Part shown: positions 1-56,128 of the stretch, piece after piece
Position numbering within the stretch: position 1 is the first letter of the stretch
Layout of the letters: the number at the start of each line of letters is the position of its first letter
DNA from: a virus
Taxonomy: Duplodnaviria; Caudoviricetes
Virus record (IMG/VR): IMGVR_UViG_3300048548_000571
Coordinates: 1 to 60,552 of that record
DNA length: 60,552 nt
Strand: one strand, 5' to 3'
Program-made: the position numbers and the translations under genes
Notes under the pieces: model-generated
What the model was told of the DNA's origin: nothing
Databases searched by the model: none
Seen by the model: only the letters and a program-made list of their open reading frames with translations

Positions 1-890
1 CCTTCATAGTGTTGTCTCAAGAATTCTACAGCACCAAGAGATAAACCGTCGTCTGCACAGTGGGGTCCGATAACCAGATTAGGAAATTCATTTCTCAATT
101 TGGTGTTGATAATAGTATTTTGTGCAATACCACCAGAATAGTATACGACATCACTCTTTTCGCAATACTTTGTAAAGTGTTTCACATACAAATCTTCGGT
201 GATTTCGTGAGCAAAGTATATCCCTTGATTGATATCTGCATCAGTGTCCATATCAAATGTCCACAGATAATCAAGGAAATGTAAACTCATTCTCTTCTGC
301 TTGAGTTTCACTTTGCGTAGTAAATGATTAGAGGTAGATCCATATTCCTTTTTTGCCATGATCTTACCTGCACGGTCGAGCACATGACCCTCCATGCCCA
401 TCTTACCACCAAGATTTCCTAGGATCTGACCGAAACTAGGCATCTCATCTAGATTATATTGTACTAGTTTCTCACCACCATGCATGATAGTATGTGAGTT
501 CTCATTATCACCATATCCATCAAATACAAATCCATAATCATACTTGTCACCAAGCATGAAGTAACTCAATATGTGTGCATAGTGATGATCTACACGAAAC
601 ACAGGACAATCAAATCCCATGTCTTTAAACATAGGGACATCAAGAATCTCAAATAGTTTGCTACAATCAGTCTTGATGAATGGATGCTTATGTGTATCCA
701 TGACAATAGCGATAGCGTCCACCTTGGTGACACCCCATCGCTTTAATACACTAGTCCACAGATTAAGACTGTTGTGACCATGGTGTTTAGATTGTAAATC
801 ACGCTCTGACTTATAATATCTGACCTTAACACCATCTGTGTATGTGATGTTAGTGTCATGCTCACAGAGTCTTAATCCTATGAAGTTCAT
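1..890 (-). CDS. Carbamoyltransferase (NodU/CmcH/TobZ family), 3'-truncated by window edge; missing from ORF track
   Basis: Manual translation from ATG 890: MNFIGLRLCEHDTNITYTDG..SERDLQSKHHG, DHHYAHILS (HHxAH), FDGYGD, AGKIMAKKEYG, YSGGIAQNTIIN, PHCADDGLSLGA. These are the Kae1-like domain motifs of the family. ATGA overlap with the upstream gene. Confidence 0.88.
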   Translation of the reverse strand, partial: MNFIGLRLCEHDTNITYTDGVKVRYYKSERDLQSKHHGHNSLNLWTSVLKRWGVTKVDAIAIVMDTHKHPFIKTDCSKLFEILDVPMFKDMGFDCPVFRVDHHYAHILSYFMLGDKYDYGFVFDGYGDNENSHTIMHGGEKLVQYNLDEMPSFGQILGNLGGKMGMEGHVLDRAGKIMAKKEYGSTSNHLLRKVKLKQKRMSLHFLDYLWTFDMDTDADINQGIYFAHEITEDLYVKHFTKYCEKSDVVYYSGGIAQNTIINTKLRNEFPNLVIGPHCADDGLSLGAVEFLRQHYE

Positions 891-1120
891 TCAAACATCG
901 GTCCCCATGTACCACGATCACCAGGTTGTCTGTTCTCTAGTTTATCCATCAGACTGTCAATATCTTTAAGTGATTCAAGTTTGACAATAATCTCACTGAT
1001 AGCATTACAGACCATGGGACGTTCTTGTCGCGCAGCGAATGCTAATGCATTACGCAATGATGCACTCGCCTCGTCAATTGATTCTTCTACTGATTTTGAT
1101 AATGCCATTGTTAAATCCAA
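887..1120 (-). CDS. Hypothetical cyanophage protein
   Basis: 77-aa ORF tightly packed in the minus-strand operon. Confidence 0.7.
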   Translation of the reverse strand: MDLTMALSKSVEESIDEASASLRNALAFAARQERPMVCNAISEIIVKLESLKDIDSLMDKLENRQPGDRGTWGPMFE

Positions 1121-1620
1121 TTTGGTTTGCGTTCTGGTATACGTCTGTAGTTATCACGCACCCATGGTTTGGATGCTATGTACCACTTGTATGCTGTGAA
1201 TGTATCTATGCTAGTGTTATGCTTGTAGACATCAGGCATTGCTCTCACAAATGGTGTGACAGTATCAATACTGCCCTGTGGGAACATATAATATGCATGA
1301 GACAATGTATTATAGCATGAATGTTGCTTATTGAAGCGTAGTGTATACTCACCACACAAACTAATGCCCCATTGTATCAACCACCACGAGTTGTGAATAG
1401 ACTCTGCTGCCCACACTGTGCATGGATGATTACGAAAAGCACCCTTGGCAGTTTTATATGGTGTGCCATCCATCTTTGGTAGTGTACCATAACTATGATA
1501 CCAATCTGATGCAACAATAGAGAGCATTTGACAGCACTCTAGTGGCATCTTGACAATATGTTTGTCAGGTAGGCAAGTAGCACATTCAGCTGGATACTTG
1601 CTCGTTACGAAGATGTTCAT
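1111..1620 (-). CDS. Pyrimidine-dimer DNA glycosylase / endonuclease V-like protein
   Basis: MNIF..CA..LPDKHIVKMPLECCQMLS N-terminus and NHPCTVWA motif. Confidence 0.75.
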   Translation of the reverse strand: MNIFVTSKYPAECATCLPDKHIVKMPLECCQMLSIVASDWYHSYGTLPKMDGTPYKTAKGAFRNHPCTVWAAESIHNSWWLIQWGISLCGEYTLRFNKQHSCYNTLSHAYYMFPQGSIDTVTPFVRAMPDVYKHNTSIDTFTAYKWYIASKPWVRDNYRRIPERKPNWI

Positions 1621-30773: not shown

Positions 30774-30847
30774 CTCCTCCACCTGGAATCGAACCAGGAA
30801 CCTATTGATTAACAGTCAACCGCTCTGCCTGATTGAGCTATAGAGGA
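30774..30847 (-). tRNA. trnN: tRNA-Asn(GTT)
   Basis: TCCTCTA TAGCTCAATCAGGCAGAGC GGTTGACT GTT AATCAA..GGTTCGATTCC..GGAGGAG cloverleaf; CCA not encoded. Confidence 0.93.
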
Positions 30848-30898
30848 ATGGGAGGGGGCGCTGTTTCTAAAATACAGATCTTTTGTACTCCCCCAAAG

Positions 30899-30971
30899 TG
30901 GAGAATAGGAGACTCGAACTCCTGACATCCTGCTTGCAAAGCAGGCGCTCTACCAGCTGAGCTAATTCCCC
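30899..30971 (-). tRNA. trnA: tRNA-Ala(TGC)
   Basis: GGGGAAT TAGCTCAGCTGGTAGAGC GCCTGCTT TGC AAGCAGG..GTTCGAGTC..ATTCTCCA; G3-U70 pair. Confidence 0.95.
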
Positions 30972-31561
30972 CCAGAACCGACTCGTTCAGTTTCGTCTAG
31001 ATAACTGAACCAACCAGTAATGATGTACTTATCTTCATTCGGAGCAACTTGTCCCTTATGAGTATAAGTCCAGTCTGATGGCCAGATAACTGTCTTACCT
31101 TTTTTAGGTTTGACAGTATAGTTCTGGTGCATAAAATCTGTACCACCACCCTCTTCAATATCATTAAGATATGTCATCCAGACTAGGTGTCTGTTGTTAT
31201 GAGGGTGCATTGCATTGCATCTTTCAGTATGCCACTTGTAAAAACCTTCACCAGGTTTGTACCACTGAATGTTAACAGATTCAGCAACTCCCCATGGAGA
31301 GTATACGTTACAAGTAGGATATTTGTCAATATATTTCTTCCCAACGTCGAATAAATGCTCTAGATATTCTTCGACAGGAGGAGCAAGATGCTTCTCAAAT
31401 GGATATATGGTAAGATCTGTAGACTTCTTGGCATCAGTGACACCAGTTGTAGTCTCTCCAGGATTTCTGCGATTTATTGAAAAATCCGAATTTTGAAAGA
31501 AGTCAATTAGCCTGTCGCAAACTGAAACATCTTTAATTTTCGCTTCTAAAATAAAATCCAT
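30962..31561 (-). CDS. 2OG-Fe(II) oxygenase between tRNA genes
   Basis: Start MDFILE (the track's longer N-terminus is tRNA-Leu sequence); GFYKWHTE, WMTYLNDIEEGGGTDF, WTYTHKG, KYIITGW. Confidence 0.88.
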   Translation of the reverse strand: MDFILEAKIKDVSVCDRLIDFFQNSDFSINRRNPGETTTGVTDAKKSTDLTIYPFEKHLAPPVEEYLEHLFDVGKKYIDKYPTCNVYSPWGVAESVNIQWYKPGEGFYKWHTERCNAMHPHNNRHLVWMTYLNDIEEGGGTDFMHQNYTVKPKKGKTVIWPSDWTYTHKGQVAPNEDKYIITGWFSYLDETERVGSGGN

Positions 31562-31572
31562 TATATCCTGAA

Positions 31573-31654
31573 TGTCGATGAGAGGACTTGAACCTCCACG
31601 GATAAATCCACTGGAACCTAAACCCAGCGCGTCTACCAATTCCGCCACATCGAC
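31573..31654 (-). tRNA. trnL: tRNA-Leu(TAG)
   Basis: GTCGATG TGGCGGAATTGGTAGACGC GCTGGGTT TAG GTTCCAG, long variable arm, GGTTCAAGTCC. Confidence 0.93.
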
Positions 31655-31658
31655 GGAG

Positions 31659-31731
31659 AGCCTGTTGACAGACTTGAACTGACGACCTACGCTTTACAAA
31701 AGCGTTGCTCTACCAGCTGAGCTAAACAGGC
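31659..31731 (-). tRNA. trnT: tRNA-Thr(TGT)
   Basis: GCCTGTT TAGCTCAGCTGGTAGAGC AACGCTTT TGT AAAGCGT..GTTCAAGTC..AACAGGCT. Confidence 0.93.
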
Positions 31732-32258
31732 ATGCGAGCAAATTCAAAGAAACCATAACGACTGCCCCAAATTTGCTTCTTGGTCCCCACGAGATAACCA
31801 CGATCTATTACATGATAATAGTCTTCACCAAGAATTGCTTCATTCTTGACATAAGTTTCACCATCTCTATGGGGAACAATGCAATCACAACCTTCAACAG
31901 ACCCGATATACTCGGATTTGTTTGGGTTGTATGATAGAATTGTATCACATGTACCCTTATGTGTCAAGCCCTCGTCGTATTTGATTTGATCGAGATTGAC
32001 ACATCCACGATACCGATTTTTGTCGAAATCGTAGTTTTTCATGCGAATCTTACCATTTTCTAGACATGCCTCAACAATAAACTGTCTATAGGGAGCATGC
32101 AACTGATAGTTGTATGCTTGTTCCCCATAAAACATATTGTCGGTCCCAGGCACCTTTTTGTGGTGCAAACGGACCATAGCAAACCTAGATGGATAAGAAA
32201 ATGCCTGAACTTTGTTTTCCCACGTTCCCTCAAACCATTCTATAAATTGTTCAATCAT
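31722..32258 (-). CDS. cpeT: CpeT/CpcT-type phycobiliprotein lyase
   Basis: Start MIEQF; F.G.W.NK.QAF..P..FA, YGEQAY...PYRQ, C.V, DRG....QIWGS..G.FEF. Confidence 0.88.
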   Translation of the reverse strand: MIEQFIEWFEGTWENKVQAFSYPSRFAMVRLHHKKVPGTDNMFYGEQAYNYQLHAPYRQFIVEACLENGKIRMKNYDFDKNRYRGCVNLDQIKYDEGLTHKGTCDTILSYNPNKSEYIGSVEGCDCIVPHRDGETYVKNEAILGEDYYHVIDRGYLVGTKKQIWGSRYGFFEFARMPV

Positions 32259-32517
32259 CTTTAGGTAATAGTTCAGGATTATCAACAGTGAGTTCAAACA
32301 TACAAGGATGACATTCTTCTGCCATAAGATATGAAGACCATTTGTATAGATCTTCATCATCCCAGTCTTGACCTTCCAACGCTTCGGTTTGAATCGCTGG
32401 ATGATCTTGGACGATCAGCGGAAGTTCGTCAAAGGTATATGGTATACCTTGGATGAAATACATGCGTACAACGGTGCCCATATAAAAGACATAGGACTGT
32501 GTTAGTGAGTATTTCAT
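32251..32517 (-). CDS. Conserved hypothetical cyanophage protein
   Basis: 88-aa ORF directly upstream of cpeT, with a late promoter. Confidence 0.7.
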   Translation of the reverse strand: MKYSLTQSYVFYMGTVVRMYFIQGIPYTFDELPLIVQDHPAIQTEALEGQDWDDEDLYKWSSYLMAEECHPCMFELTVDNPELLPKDD

Positions 32518-32522
32518 AACAT

Positions 32523-32550
32523 TTCCACTACATTTTATTTAGTAGTGGAA
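32523..32550 (-). promoter_or_regulatory. 9-bp hairpin containing late promoter CTAAATA and covering the RBS of the downstream gene
   Basis: TTCCACTAC-TAAATAAAAT-GTAGTGGAA, 5 nt before ATG 32517. Confidence 0.65.
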
Positions 32551-32633
32551 TAGGGCAAGCGAGACTTGAACTCGCACGAACTATGTTCTTCAGATTTTAA
32601 GTCTGATGTGTCTACCGATTCCACCACTGCCCC
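32551..32633 (-). tRNA. trnL: tRNA-Leu(TAA)
   Basis: GGGGCAG TGGTGGAATCGGTAGACAC ATCAGACT TAA AATCTGA, long variable arm, GTTCAAGTC; no intron. Confidence 0.92.
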
Positions 32634-53868: not shown

Positions 53869-54036
53869 TTAGTCTGCATAGCCATCATCGTCTCCATCGT
53901 ATCTAGCATAAGCAGCTGACACATCATGGCGATCCGATTTGATGTATGCATTGGGGTCGGAATAGATCTCTGCTTCTAAAGCATTGAGCAAAGACTTAAG
54001 ATTCTTGTGGATTAATTTTAATCTCTCTCTGTCCAT
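53869..54036 (-). CDS. Small conserved cyanophage protein (55 aa, not in track)
   Basis: MDRERLKLIHKNLKSLLNALEAEIYSDPNAYIKSDRHDVSAAYARYDGDDDGYAD; GGGAG SD. Confidence 0.72.
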   Translation of the reverse strand: MDRERLKLIHKNLKSLLNALEAEIYSDPNAYIKSDRHDVSAAYARYDGDDDGYAD

Positions 54037-54065
54037 GTGTACTCCCTTTAATTATATAGTAGCAT

Positions 54066-54090
54066 AAAAAAAGAGGGGTTGCAACCCCTC
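54066..54090 (-). terminator. Rho-independent terminator
   Basis: GAGGGG-TTGCAA-CCCCTC-TTTTTTT. Confidence 0.85.
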
Positions 54091-54098
54091 CGAAAGTA

Positions 54099-54272
54099 TT
54101 ACATTAAGATTCTTCTGCAGATTCTCTTACATTGTGTCTGGTTTAGCGCGTCACATTCAATTAGACATTCATAGTAGTCATCTAGTTTTTGATTTTCTGT
54201 TTGTAGATTGTCAAGTGTGTCTTCTAGATGTCTCCATTCGTCAAGTTGATTTCGTGACAGTAGTGTGTGCAT
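54099..54272 (-). CDS. Small Cys-rich protein (CxxxC..CxxxC)
   Basis: MHTLLSRNQLDEW...DYYECLIECDALNQTQCKRICRRILM; GGAGG SD. Confidence 0.72.
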   Translation of the reverse strand: MHTLLSRNQLDEWRHLEDTLDNLQTENQKLDDYYECLIECDALNQTQCKRICRRILM

Positions 54273-54345
54273 ATCCACCTCCAATTCGACTGATCAAATA
54301 ATATAGAGAGGGGGTTTGGTTCATGACTACCTCCGATAATGCTAT

Positions 54346-54376
54346 ATTATATAGGACTATTGTAGTAGATATTACA
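54346..54376 (-). promoter_or_regulatory. NtcA box next to a TATAAT -10 element
   Basis: TGTA-ATATCTAC-TACA (54361-54376); TATAAT at 54346-54351. Confidence 0.65.
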
Positions 54377-54396
54377 GTTGTTTGATGTGTTACCAC

Positions 54397-54425
54397 AAAA
54401 AAAGAGAGGTAACGATACCTCTCTT
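54397..54425 (-). terminator. Rho-independent terminator ending the riboswitch-led operon
   Basis: AAGAGAGGTA/TACCTCTCTT stem plus T-run. Confidence 0.82.
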
Positions 54426-54444
54426 AACGAAAACGTATTAAGTT

Positions 54445-54603
54445 TTATTGATTCACTTTCCAGCTGGACGTGCCTCGTGATTTTAGATAAACCATTTTGG
54501 CATATGTTATACCACGATAAGTCAAGAGTCTAAAGACTTTATCTGGATCGTGTTTAGCAGAATCATAGACTGGAAGATCATATTCAAATCTGATCTTCAG
54601 CAT
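54445..54603 (-). CDS. DUF4278-like small protein (52 aa, not in track)
   Basis: MLKIRFEYDLP...LLTYRGITYAK; YRGxxY motif. Confidence 0.62.
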   Translation of the reverse strand: MLKIRFEYDLPVYDSAKHDPDKVFRLLTYRGITYAKMVYLKSRGTSSWKVNQ

Positions 54604-54611
54604 CTTTCCCC

Positions 54612-54707
54612 CTACATCTTTTGTAGGAGGAGGATCTCACCGTAAAGTAATGCGATGAATGCTGCACAACCTAGGGATGTTACTCCAACTAATTGTAGTG
54701 CTTGCAT
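54612..54707 (-). CDS. 31-aa hydrophobic peptide (not in track)
   Basis: MQALQLVGVTSLGCAAFIALLYGEILLLQKM; fills the gap between neighbouring genes. Confidence 0.5.
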   Translation of the reverse strand: MQALQLVGVTSLGCAAFIALLYGEILLLQKM

Positions 54708-54712
54708 GTCGA

Positions 54713-54880
54713 TCACTTAACGTAGGTGCGACCGCGATAGCAGAATGTGCCATGAGCTTCCTTGCTTTCTACACAACGCTGATCGTACCCAACACCACGG
54801 TAAGAGGTGTGAGTGATTTGTGCGTCGTGAAGTGCCGCTGCCTTCTGGATCTGCTTCTTGATGAGAGTTAAGGTGTTCAT
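54713..54880 (-). CDS. DUF4278-like protein (55 aa, not in track)
   Basis: MNTLTLIKKQIQKAAALHDAQITHTSYRGVGYDQRCVESKEAHGTFCYRGRTYVK; two YRGxxY motifs; AGAGGA SD. Confidence 0.75.
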   Translation of the reverse strand: MNTLTLIKKQIQKAAALHDAQITHTSYRGVGYDQRCVESKEAHGTFCYRGRTYVK

Positions 54881-54915
54881 GAGTATGTCCTCTGAAGTTA
54901 GGGTGGTTTAATCCC

Positions 54916-55131
54916 CGTTCCTTCAGTCGTTTGCGTCCCAATCCAACCACCTATTCGTGATCAGACCAATACCAATCACATTCTGGGTTTGATTCCTTTA
55001 CGGTATCAACCAACTCGATCTTCAATACATCGTCGATGTATTTGTTTGCCCGAATCCTCAACATGATAGCATCGGTTTGCTGGCATGATAGAGTTGTATA
55101 CAGAAGTAATTCTGGTATCATGGGATGAACG
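54916..55131 (-). promoter_or_regulatory. Glutamine riboswitch-like aptamer 2 (glnA/Downstream-peptide class) with an ORF-sized P2 loop
   Basis: CGTTCA-TCCCA ... TGGGA-CGCAAA-CGACT-GAAG-GAACG; P1 CGTTC/GAACG. Confidence 0.75.
54951..55121 (-). CDS. 56-aa two-Cys protein nested in aptamer 2 (not in track)
   Basis: MIPELLLYTTLSCQQTDAIMLRIRANKYIDDVLKIELVDTVKESNPECDWYWSDHE; aligns with 55157-55357. Confidence 0.72.
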   Translation of the reverse strand: MIPELLLYTTLSCQQTDAIMLRIRANKYIDDVLKIELVDTVKESNPECDWYWSDHE

Positions 55132-55134
55132 CTC

Positions 55135-55367
55135 CGTTCCGCGACTTACTTGCGTCTTATGTATAAGATCCTTCGCACTGACCTTCCACTTTTGTCTTGA
55201 GATATCCAATTAAAGCCCACTTCGACCGTTGGTCTAGGTTGGGATCCATCTGAATTTCCACACGACGTTGGAGGAACCTTTCACATGACATGTGCCACCC
55301 GTAGGGGGAACCGTCTTGATGATGGGCAAGGGTCAATGCCAGTAGGATACTGATCATAAGATGAACG
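55135..55367 (-). promoter_or_regulatory. Glutamine riboswitch-like aptamer 1 with an ORF-sized P2 loop
   Basis: CGTTCA-TCTTATG ... CATAAGA-CGCAAGTA-AGTCG-CG-GAACG. Confidence 0.75.
55157..55357 (-). CDS. 66-aa two-Cys protein nested in aptamer 1
   Basis: Hydrophobic N-terminus, SC-x35-C; ATG and TAA lie in the two arms of P2. Confidence 0.75.
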   Translation of the reverse strand: MISILLALTLAHHQDGSPYGWHMSCERFLQRRVEIQMDPNLDQRSKWALIGYLKTKVEGQCEGSYT

Positions 55368-55375
55368 ATTGCTAT

Positions 55376-55405
55376 AGTATAGCACTACTATATAGCATTT
55401 GTCAA
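55376..55405 (-). promoter_or_regulatory. Sigma70-type promoter of the riboswitch transcript
   Basis: TTGACA-N18-TATACT, 8 nt before aptamer 1. Confidence 0.7.
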
Positions 55406-55406
55406 A

Positions 55407-55422
55407 TGTATCGACTGTTACA
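55407..55422. promoter_or_regulatory. NtcA binding site
   Basis: TGTA-ACAGTCGA-TACA (minus strand), abutting the -35 hexamer. Confidence 0.7.
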
Positions 55423-55427
55423 TTTAA

Positions 55428-55694
55428 CTATTTTTTATTCTTTGGTGGTTCGTTAGGGTCCACCCAAAGTTTGGGGTTGGCTCTCCCCTCTGTCTGTGTC
55501 ATGGTAACAAAGTCTTTACCATACATGTCCCAGTAGTGATCAAAGATATCCACACGTCCAGGAGCAGTTACGATATCAAACTTGGTGATACCATCTTGAG
55601 AATACTCTACCATGTAAGCAGAGTATGGAAGACTGCGATCCTGGCAAAGGGTAGGATCACATTCCTGATGCAGCATCTTGATTCCTTTTCCCAT
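55428..55694 (-). CDS. Conserved hypothetical cyanophage protein
   Basis: Start MGKGIK, overlapping the upstream stop codon. Confidence 0.7.
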   Translation of the reverse strand: MGKGIKMLHQECDPTLCQDRSLPYSAYMVEYSQDGITKFDIVTAPGRVDIFDHYWDMYGKDFVTMTQTEGRANPKLWVDPNEPPKNKK

Positions 55695-56128
55695 CAGCCG
55701 CGATTCCCCCATTGAATGTGAGGGAATGCCTCGGACACCACTGCTTTGGTGATCTTCCAACGCTTACCCAGTTTCTTATCCTTGACCAGAGTCAGAACCT
55801 CTGCTTCACCAGCAGTCAGACCCTCTAGCATCTGGATGAACAGTTCCTCACGTCGGGACTGTTTAAGGGTGCTGCTACCGCCCTTGAAGAAGAGATACAG
55901 CTTTCGGTACTCTTTCTCCAGGACCGAGTGTTCCGTCCCTTCAGGGGCATCGTTGACGGTGTAGGGGACCTCTCCTGGTGGCAGCATGCTGACGATGCTC
56001 TCGTCAAAGTTTGCAATCAAGAGAGCACGAAGGGCATTAGTATTGTATTGCAATAGCAACTTCTTCTTCTCTGCCTTGGTCTTCGCATTGCTCACTTTCT
56101 GGAGCACTTCATTAATAAGCAAATTCAT
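55694..56128 (-). CDS. Conserved T4-like phage protein downstream of rnh
   Basis: I.EVL.KVS.AKTK, LPPG.VPY, RREELFIQMLEGL...EAEVL..VKDKKL. Confidence 0.78.
   Translation of the reverse strand: MNLLINEVLQKVSNAKTKAEKKKLLLQYNTNALRALLIANFDESIVSMLPPGEVPYTVNDAPEGTEHSVLEKEYRKLYLFFKGGSSTLKQSRREELFIQMLEGLTAGEAEVLTLVKDKKLGKRWKITKAVVSEAFPHIQWGNRG

Follow-up and report, generated by a model that had tools for sequence, protein, structure and literature searches.

A predicted composite glutamine riboswitch in a marine cyanophage, with one aptamer nested in the P3 helix of another

Glutamine riboswitches and the cyanophage locus

[quoted passage not shown] Glutamine riboswitches also occur in tandem (Weinberg 2010, PMC2864571); Sherlock et al. 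(2022, PMC9481103) counted 157 doublets, which are treated there as separate riboswitches giving pseudo-cooperative control. The glutamine-I aptamer (RF01739) has been crystallised and its E-loop is GAAGUAA/UGAAGC (PMC5393176), and glutamine riboswitches located upstream of DUF4278/IF17 genes are ON switches (PMC6212724, PMC6698751). For cyanophage genomes, a 2017 survey reported only two glutamine aptamers (PMC5473149). Our literature search, which took in the tandem-riboswitch review, Weinberg 2010 and the glutamine-II structure paper of Huang et al. (2019, PMC6698751), found no account of a second core inside P3 that shares one helix, and the words ‘nested’, ‘circular’ and ‘inserted’ are absent from the main text of PMC9481103. 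Glutamine riboswitches and their tandem occurrence are known, and an aptamer nested in the P3 of another, which we did not find described, is apparently new.

The window studied here is the whole stretch of 60,552 nt of IMGVR_UViG_3300048548_000571 (Caudoviricetes), from a marine cyanophage, and the element lies on its minus strand. We searched with the 861-nt region around the element, and 410 phage records matched at least part of it; almost all of them are Synechococcus T4-like cyanomyophages, the closest being S-CAM3 with 88% identity. Set against the two aptamers of the survey in PMC5473149, this number indicates that covariance-model annotation undercounts phage riboswitches. In the window, Rfam at gathering threshold returned five tRNAs only and no glutamine family, and none of its glutamine families was found over 54000-56000 at E ≤ 10; this reflects P2 loops filled by ORFs of 170–200 nt, with which the model cannot cope, and not a missing element. 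The signature patterns of the composite recur on several hundred contigs of viral and metagenome origin, usually with ORFs in the loops. A scan of genome contigs with ACGCAAGTA-N5-CGGAACG gave 109 stretches against ∼280 expected by chance (596 Gb, 16 fixed bases); judged from record titles alone nearly all of these look like chance, and the sole cyanobacterial title belongs to a 194 kb Synechococcus MAG contig.

Transcription is predicted to start a few bases ahead of the first CGUUC, from a promoter that is a consensus match only, and relatives have comparable −10 boxes directly upstream of this CGUUC. The ORFs g1, g2 and g3 follow in series on the minus strand, and the terminator-like hairpin after g4, likewise a consensus match only, is the probable end of the transcription unit. 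Positions 54429-55339 are covered at ≥99% by contigs from four metatranscriptome runs; these contigs may stem from carried-over DNA, and they give no strand, ends or level. Apparent joints in them that skip 174–190 nt fit relatives with another g2 or with none and were rejected as processing, and the coverage gap at 55350-55393 in three of the runs was not accepted as evidence of a 5′-end. We consider it probable that positions 55367-54892 of the minus strand form a composite glutamine riboswitch in which one aptamer sits inside another (Table 1), glutamine being the predicted ligand.

Table 1. Features of the element and its transcription unit, in the direction of transcription
Feature	Position	Strand	Basis or remark
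Sigma-70-like promoter	55376..55405	(-)	TTGACA, 18 nt, TATACT, with TG; 11/12 consensus positions
a: CGUUC, outer P1 5′ strand, partner f	55363..55367	(-)	Covariation, RNAalifold, Rfam alignment
P2a 5′ strand UCUUAUG	55355..55361	(-)	Pairs with CAUAAGA; contains g1 start codon 55357-55355
g1, 66-aa ORF in P2a loop	55157..55357	(-)	ORF call; no Pfam family
P2a 3′ strand CAUAAGA	55155..55161	(-)	Contains g1 stop codon (UAA)
J1: CGCA then AGUA (E-loop 5′ half)	55147..55154	(-)	Aligned with CGGAAGUA in RF01739
b: AGUCG, 5′ strand of shared P3	55142..55146	(-)	Covariation, RNAalifold
c: GGAACGG, inner P1 3′ strand, partner d	55134..55140	(-)	c/d covariation
d: CGUUC, inner P1 5′ strand	55127..55131	(-)	Two bases (AG) after c; c/d covariation
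P2b 5′ strand UCCCA	55121..55125	(-)	Pairs with UGGGA 54940-54936; g2 start codon 55121-55119
g2, 56-aa ORF in P2b loop	54951..55121	(-)	ORF call; no Pfam family above cut-off
P2b 3′ strand UGGGA, then J2 CGCAAA	54930..54940	(-)	Near-invariant columns in the 150-row alignment
e: CGACU, 3′ strand of shared P3	54925..54929	(-)	Covariation; last two bases also in alternative hairpin
GAA (E-loop 3′ half), G, f = GAACG (outer P1 3′ strand), G	54915..54924	(-)	Aligns to GAAGGAACG of RF01739
CUUCAG, alternative helix with CUGAAG 54926-54921	54892..54897	(-)	Covariation; abuts ribosome-binding purines
g3, 55-aa DUF4278-like (IF17-like) protein	54713..54880	(-)	PF14105 match below cut-off
g4	54445..54603	(-)	ORF between g3 and terminator-like hairpin; no PF14105 match
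Intrinsic-terminator-like hairpin	54402..54425	(-)	After g4; consensus match only

Two cores and the pairing of their P1 strands

The element resembles glutamine-I (RF01739) in its P1 of CGUUC/GAACG, whose register follows from covariation and RNAalifold, in a P2 placed directly after CGUUCA, in a junction of the form CGxA, in the E-loop AGUA/GAA that leads into P3, and in the G/C after the 3′ strand. In the window this P2 has 7 bp (UCUUAUG/CAUAAGA) and its loop, a 201-nt ORF, is atypical. The flanks AAGUAAG...CUGAAG equal the P3 and E-loop of the crystallised aptamer (PMC5393176); in 38 of 129 loci an A replaces the first G of the E-loop GAA, a change that tracks the alternative helix described below. 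The gathering threshold of RF01739 (35 bits) is not reached by the window and is passed by the composite in 4/8 compact relatives, in which both P2 loops are short (38.4–40.3 bits), and there only as one aptamer with an insert of 38–46 nt in P3. Unlike glutamine-I, the phage P3 is closed by a second aptamer core and not by a loop, the junction C and tail G are as in glutamine-II, and the P2 loops of the window hold whole ORFs. In 61 Cyanobiaceae genomes we found 24 chromosomal RF01739 matches, all of which are, by eye, singlets with a P3 or 3′ hairpin of their own. Of these, 23 resemble glutamine-I and have a P1 of CGUUG/CAACG, and one resembles glutamine-II and has CGUUC/GGAACG.

We propose that the outer unit would be a canonical glutamine-I aptamer, with P1 formed by a and f, then P2a, CGCA, the E-loop AGUA/GAA and the P3 AGUCG/CGACU, and that this P3 would be closed by a second, circularly permuted core in place of a hairpin loop. 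The inner core would consist of a P1 of GGAACG (55140-35) and CGUUC (55131-27) with a 2-nt loop, P2b (UCCCA/UGGGA) and the junction CGCAAA, and the same 5-bp helix would serve as its own P3, entered from the other end. The conserved core residues are all present in both cores: CGUUCA at 55367-62 and 55131-26, CGCA junctions at 55154-51 and 54935-32, and GGAACGG at 55140-34 and 54921-15. Moreover, the inner CGUUCA, CGCA and GGAACGG columns are near-invariant in 150 aligned rows and also in 41 compact rows. The P2 stems persist across the loops that bear ORFs; P2a has on average 5.4 contiguous pairs against 3.35 with shuffled partners (54 unique loci), and P2b has 5.6 against 4.5, including swaps like CCCCA/UGGGG. 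Since P3 is closed by the inner core, either site should fold more readily once the other has folded, and because both cores keep every conserved binding-site residue, two-site binding and cooperativity remain plausible: we regard two functional glutamine sites as rather likely, and we put forward cooperativity between them only tentatively, as a prediction from the conserved residues.

The earlier note on this DNA had read two aptamers interlocked into a single pseudoknotted sensor, a picture of side-by-side units in which the first CGUUC would pair with the first GGAACG and the second with the second. The four P1 strands follow one another as a (CGUUC, 55367-63), c (GGAACG, 55140-35), d (CGUUC, 55131-27) and f (GAACG, 54920-16), and because both CGUUC/GGAACG copies are normally identical most loci are silent on the register. 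Natural double mutants, however, show that a pairs with f and c with d. An IMG/VR scan anchored on the e side gave 7 loci with c = GCAACG, all 7 of which have d = CGUUG, and a = CGUUC and f = GAACG are unchanged in them; in seven apparent exceptions the supposed a = CGUUG was a spurious match lying within P2a or g1. Scanning metagenomes for d = CGUUG while leaving the c base free gave at least 118 stretches (96 unique contexts, 1 chance match), and c was GCAACG in 117/117 of the real d = CGUUG loci among the matches listed. In 7 of these loci, again among the matches listed, a is CGUUU and f is AAACG, so that an outer U-A pair and a swapped inner G-C pair are found in one RNA where a-c and d-f would mismatch; this a-f covariation comes from 7 similar loci, probably of one lineage. 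Conversely, c = GGAACG accompanies d = CGUUC in all 150 rows of the alignment. Between c and d lie 2 nt in 231 loci, 3 nt in 39 loci and more than that in 4. A scan for f = GCAACG returned 78 stretches, of which the 6 that passed the filter are unrelated coding DNA, and it gave no a-f information.

Structure prediction agrees where the loops are short. For 41 unique compact elements, RNAalifold returned the helices a-f, P2a, b-e, c-d and P2b and no others, and 9 of the 25 pairs show compensatory changes. In the window, ViennaRNA gave b-e a probability of 0.005 and a-f 0.0, and c was assigned to d with 0.46 and to a with 0.47; an outer P1 here needs to close over 447 nt, across two ORFs that ribosomes may be translating, and we treat this prediction as the ligand-free default and not as a refutation. 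The nested register is thus strongly supported. The fold is wholly nested and holds no pseudoknot, AGUCG/CGACU being an ordinary outer P3 that the inner core uses as well, and the reading of the locus as interlocked by a pseudoknot should be replaced by that of an aptamer within an aptamer sharing P3.

A single working sensor could also account for the nested fold if only the outer aptamer binds glutamine and the inner unit is a P3 cap or a decoy for a and f. Indeed, the inner unit is without an E-loop (A/C instead of AGUA/GAA) and its P1 loop is very short, the 2-nt c-d linker being tight if the G after c also makes a long-range pair; moreover, one relative has an upstream stand-alone aptamer with a mini-P3 (35.1 bits), and single sensors thus occur in these phages. 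A mere cap, however, would not need the invariant CGUUCA, CGCA and GGAACGG, and the only change in the inner P1 is at C5:G36, one of two unconserved pairs of the binding helix according to Huang et al. (PMC6698751). The decoy variant is further weakened by the c/d swap, which destroys full a-c and d-f complementarity in >117 loci. Hence we regard a single sensor as unlikely.

Less probable still are two tandem aptamers with a P1 each (a-c round g1 and d-f round g2) that are interlocked by an AGUCG/CGACU pseudoknot. This arrangement is suggested by the linear order and by the a-c probability in the window, it agrees with tandem glutamine riboswitches being on record as 157 doublets (PMC9481103), and two of eight compact loci have a to d aligned as a unit by RF01704 slightly above its cut-off of 33 bits (35.7 and 34.0), although one of these alignments has 8 flagged non-canonical pairs in the 3′ helix. 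Against it, the c/d swap (7/7 in the first scan, 117/117 in the second among the matches listed) mismatches a-c and d-f and leaves c-d and a-f perfect, a = CGUUU fits only f = AAACG in 7 loci, and both RNAalifold and RF01739 choose the nested register. Moreover, canonical connectivity, as given in PMC6698751, joins the E-loop exit strand to the P1 of the same P2 and junction, which is a-f.

The nested arrangement also sets the element apart from its nearest described relatives. Like the doublets of PMC9481103 it has two glutamine-type cores on one mRNA leader, but here the units are incomplete alone and nested, and one helix serves both; two complete aptamers in series were not found, each half being without a P3 and one E-loop strand. 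With glutamine-II (Downstream-peptide, RF01704) it shares the CGCA junction, the GGAACGG tail, the association with short DUF4278 ORFs and, 3′ of the junction, a helix that has its 3′ strand near the ribosome site. The C of the phage CGCA and the G after GGAACG resemble the glutamine-II C19:G41 pair (PMC6698751), and by this analogy the G after f may be a long-range pair partner. In contrast to glutamine-II, the phage CUGAAG/CUUCAG helix abuts the G35-equivalent without a spacer and consumes that residue (numbering of PMC6698751), and it competes with the aptamer; with a-f/c-d, the P1 register differs as well. What is conserved here is hence not the pseudoknot fold of glutamine-II: CGUUC does not form a pseudoknot with a GGAACG in a 3′ hairpin loop, since d does not pair with f, and RF01704 scores on relatives are mostly below 33 bits. 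On the same register and spacer arguments we dropped the possibility that the second aptamer is a glutamine-II aptamer with CUGAAG/CUUCAG as its P2. In the tandem glycine and ydaO riboswitches coupling is by tertiary contacts or internal symmetry, not by an aptamer inserted in a stem. A natural, compact composite (∼90-nt core) would be a test case for ligand cooperativity via direct helical coupling.

Covariation of the shared P3 helix

The earlier note had also seen AGUA with AGUCG in one aptamer and CGACU with GAA in the other, neither having a P3 of its own, and had proposed that the two 5-mers form a common helix. The motifs are present on the minus strand exactly as described (AGUA 55150-55147 followed by b, and e followed by GAA 54924-54922); the AGUA and GAA halves of the E-loop flank the helix on either side, and the helix spans the second ORF, g2. 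Each half alone, with the P3 positions deleted, falls below the Rfam cut-off of 35 bits (28.5 for S-SM2, and 34.3, 34.1 and 30.9). In S-SM2, which is without g1, the first unit is a short-hairpin version and its matches are sub-threshold (RF01704 29.8 bits, RF01739 28.5 bits).

Because ∼0.8 complements of 5 nt are expected by chance within ∼800 nt of a single sequence (800/1024), the complement in one window proves nothing, and we therefore compared relatives. In the window and 12 isolate phage loci, b is AGTCG and e is CGACT in 13/13 sequences, which is uninformative on pairing. We then scanned IMG/VR with the five b positions left free, which gave at least 119 stretches. Four more scans, each requiring a change at one of the b positions, gave 61, 56, 28 and 5 stretches; the corresponding scan with position 4 not C gave 0 stretches, so that pair 4 is invariant and says nothing either way. 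Thus, the sample of loci was enriched on purpose for b variants and e was never selected, and because enrichment selected b only, compensation in e is an honest test.

The b-side motif was present in 256 loci among the matches listed, and the e side was also present in 247 of them. All five pairs are kept (Watson–Crick or G.U) in 245 of these 247, two of which have e one base off the register of the search pattern, and the other 2 loci have one mismatch. The commonest combinations are AGUCG/CGACU (117 loci), AGUCA/UGACU (42), GGUCG/CGACU (41) and AAUCG/CGAUU (14), followed by GGUCG/CGAUU (8), GAUCG/CGAUU (7) and AGACU/AGUCU (5); AAUCU/AGAUU, AGUCU/AGACU and AUUCG/CGAAU occur in 3 loci each, and AGUCG/CGAUU and AGUCA/UGGCU in 1 each. 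Covariation of the two 5-mers, the check that the note had named, is thus seen as compensatory changes at 3/5 pairs: pair 2 changes from G-C to A-U or U-A, pair 3 from U-A to A-U, and pair 5 from G-C to A-U or U-A, while pair 1 changes from A-U to G.U and pair 4 not at all.

For statistics we used an alignment of 150 rows, which holds the window, the complete set of 102 unique variant rows, and 47 rows picked at random from the 109 of reference type. In this alignment 99.7% of 750 b-e cells are paired, and in 70 cells both sides have changed; none of 500 shuffles attained the paired fraction, the number of double-changed cells or the covariation score, and controls with a slid partner had only 1.5–36.8% of cells paired. 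Two coarser measures are unexceptional, pairs with a double change being attained in 159 of 500 shuffles and the number of further pair types in 76 of 500. On a FastTree built without the P3 columns, which phage recombination makes rough, independent contrasts on supported branches went the same way in about 4.9 of 5 cases at pair 5 (0 opposite), about 3.3 of 4 at pair 2 and 3/3 at pair 3, which makes ∼11/12 overall and never the opposite way; each pair singly has p ≥ 0.06 in these tests, which are underpowered. Together these observations confirm the motif pairing, and we hold the AGUCG/CGACU helix to be real with near certainty. That the two 5-mers match by chance, as is expected in one sequence, or through coding constraint, since g2 runs through J2 and e in most relatives (its C-terminus ...WDAND* lying across CGACU in many of them), is rejected as having almost no probability, because the non-coding b changes together with e, some of the e changes are non-synonymous, both strands persist in compact loci that lack g2, and the slid controls collapse.

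The competing helix and the genes of the leader

The strand that completes P3 has a second partner. Next to the ribosome site of the DUF4278 (IF17-like) gene lies CUUCAG, with which CGACUGAAG also pairs and covaries. CUGAAG consists of the last two e bases, the E-loop GAA and the G atop the outer P1, so that neither P3 nor the E-loop nor the final outer-P1 pair can coexist with its CUUCAG helix. Across relatives 97.6% of 872 cells of this helix are paired, with 53 double changes (G-C to A-U). GAAG accompanies CUUCAG or CUUUAG, AAAG accompanies CUUUAG only, and 0 of 83 CUAAAG loci are paired with CUUCAG; where position 4 of e is U, its partner in the alternative helix is G, or A in four loci. 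In the window, ViennaRNA gives the CUGAAG/CUUCAG helix as the default, with a probability of 0.72–0.998. Because P3 and the CUUCAG helix are mutually exclusive and covary separately, they carry the usual signature of a riboswitch expression platform, and the CUGAAG/CUUCAG pairing looks like the switch.

As we propose, CUGAAG would pair with CUUCAG next to the g3 ribosome site when glutamine is absent, and in the presence of glutamine the cores would fold, P3 and the E-loop would claim the CUGAAG strand and the g3 ribosome site would be freed, which is an ON switch. The direction of switching is suggested by the local helix, which takes the first two bases of AGGAG in most relatives, and by the published ON switches of DUF4278/IF17 genes. 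The logic is weak in the window, where the helix reaches no further than the first purine of the ribosome site GAGGA, and ON control of g3 by glutamine, the weakest step of the model, is a reading towards which we lean only slightly. The gene under control is presumed to be g3. It matches PF14105 with 20.9 bits (E 4.8e-4; cut-off 25.3 bits), and of 14 proteins, namely the window g3 and g4 and 12 positional counterparts, 13 match this family at E ≤ 0.01 and 5 are above the cut-off. If so, an IF17-like protein of the phage, a possible inactivator of the host glutamine synthetase, would be put under direct glutamine control early in infection.

The ORFs in the P2 loops vary among relatives. The gene g1 is absent from S-SM2, where P2a is a short hairpin, and from 41 compact loci, and in the compact loci g2 is replaced by a short hairpin as well; other relatives have neither ORF, only g2, or other ORFs in the P2b loop, and phage Sf-CH5 has an annotated homing endonuclease gene within the c-d loop. 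The closing stems of P2 take in the start codons of both ORFs and the stop codon of g1, and in most relatives the g2 ORF reads on across J2 and e to its stop codon, the UGA or UAA of CGAC-UGA. We read g1 and g2 as passengers in insertion-tolerant loops. In this the element resembles group I introns, structured RNAs that tolerate whole ORFs in hairpin loops; unlike them it does not splice, and the phage RNA serves as the leader of an mRNA, with loops that would be translated themselves.

Ribosomes could play a further part. In an extension of the nested model that we consider rather unlikely, the permuted aptamer in P3 would make the element a cooperative two-glutamine sensor that also depends on translation for its assembly: ribosomes moving along g1 or g2 would pull it apart, and the folded sensor would silence g1 and g2 while turning the IF17-like g3 on. 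If this were true, the riboswitch would combine signals of nitrogen status and of translational activity, and mobile ORFs, including a homing endonuclease, would have landing pads in its loops. As to compact forms of the element, the genome paper of phage S-CREM1 lists, without comment at that entry, a 99-nt glnA match of 44 bits (PMC9964418), which is the size of the compact composite.

Small reading frames in the P2 loops

The P2 5′ strands contain the start codons of g1 and g2, the small ORFs housed in the P2 loops of the composite glutamine riboswitch, and the stop codon of g1 falls within the P2a 3′ strand; among relatives these ORFs are variously present, missing or swapped for others. 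About 31 additional bases (window 54951-54985; columns ∼370-405 of A1, the 150-row alignment) are common to the window and S-CAM3, and owing to these bases g2 ends early in both, at a UAG (54953-51). In most relatives g2 continues across P2b, the J2 junction and strand e of the shared P3 helix (...W-D-A-N-D), and its stop codon is a UGA or UAA within CGAC-UGA-AGG. Thus, in relatives with a read-through g2, the terminating ribosome would be placed over P3 and the E-loop, ∼45 nt upstream of the downstream gene g3.

Coordinates of features in the window and in related loci (L-numbers)
Feature	Size or score	Location	Strand	Position relative to riboswitch or genes
g1	66 aa	window 55157-55357	minus	entire ORF inside P2 loop of one core
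g2	56 aa	window 54951-55121	minus	entire ORF inside P2 loop of other core
g4	52 aa	window 54445-54603	minus	downstream of g3
Five clustered tRNA genes		window 30774-32633	minus	
AACGGAUCC-hairpin-AGAAGGUU module		L002 1022-1075; also L059, L188		between f and CUUCAG
Annotated homing endonuclease gene		L613 (Synechococcus phage Sf-CH5) 552-1124, region 529-1131		between c and d
Stand-alone glutamine-I-like aptamer	35.1 bits	L074 6502-6553		upstream of composite

Tails and insertions in relatives

Between strand f and g3, many phages carry an extra conserved module, AACGGAUCC-hairpin-AGAAGGUU, within the loop that runs from GGAACGG to CUUCAG. In one lineage (L107, L132, L151, L177, L248 and L249) the tail after f reads ...UUACUAAAAAUCAAAUG and lacks both CUUCAG and the GGAG ribosome site; here e (CGAUU or AGAUU) could alternatively pair with an AAUC directly upstream of the start codon. 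In Sf-CH5 the annotated homing endonuclease gene occupies the inner P1 loop, with GGAACGG (c) on one side and the following CGUUCA (d) on the other, and the sequence before d in L125, L085, L400 and L413 looks like remnants of the same insertion.

Other aptamer arrangements

The stand-alone aptamer of L074 has a mini-P3 (AG-CCGA-CU) followed by C-GGAACGG, and is devoid of the GAA strand. In L410, a single contig, the b-side half is gone while J2, e and f (CGACUGAAGGAACGG) are retained, apparently through a deletion that joined g1-like sequence to other DNA. Ahead of most chromosomal glutamine-I aptamers of Cyanobiaceae (L365-L388), an inverted repeat, GUUCAC-N-AUGAACA, is conserved ∼40-70 nt upstream of the RF01739 matches; our guess is that it may serve as a promoter element or as a regulator site.

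g4 and the tRNA genes

The g4 product had no Pfam match at E ≤ 0.01; it contains a TYRGITY motif resembling DUF4278 proteins. The window also carries a tRNA gene cluster, and such clusters are usual for T4-like cyanophages.
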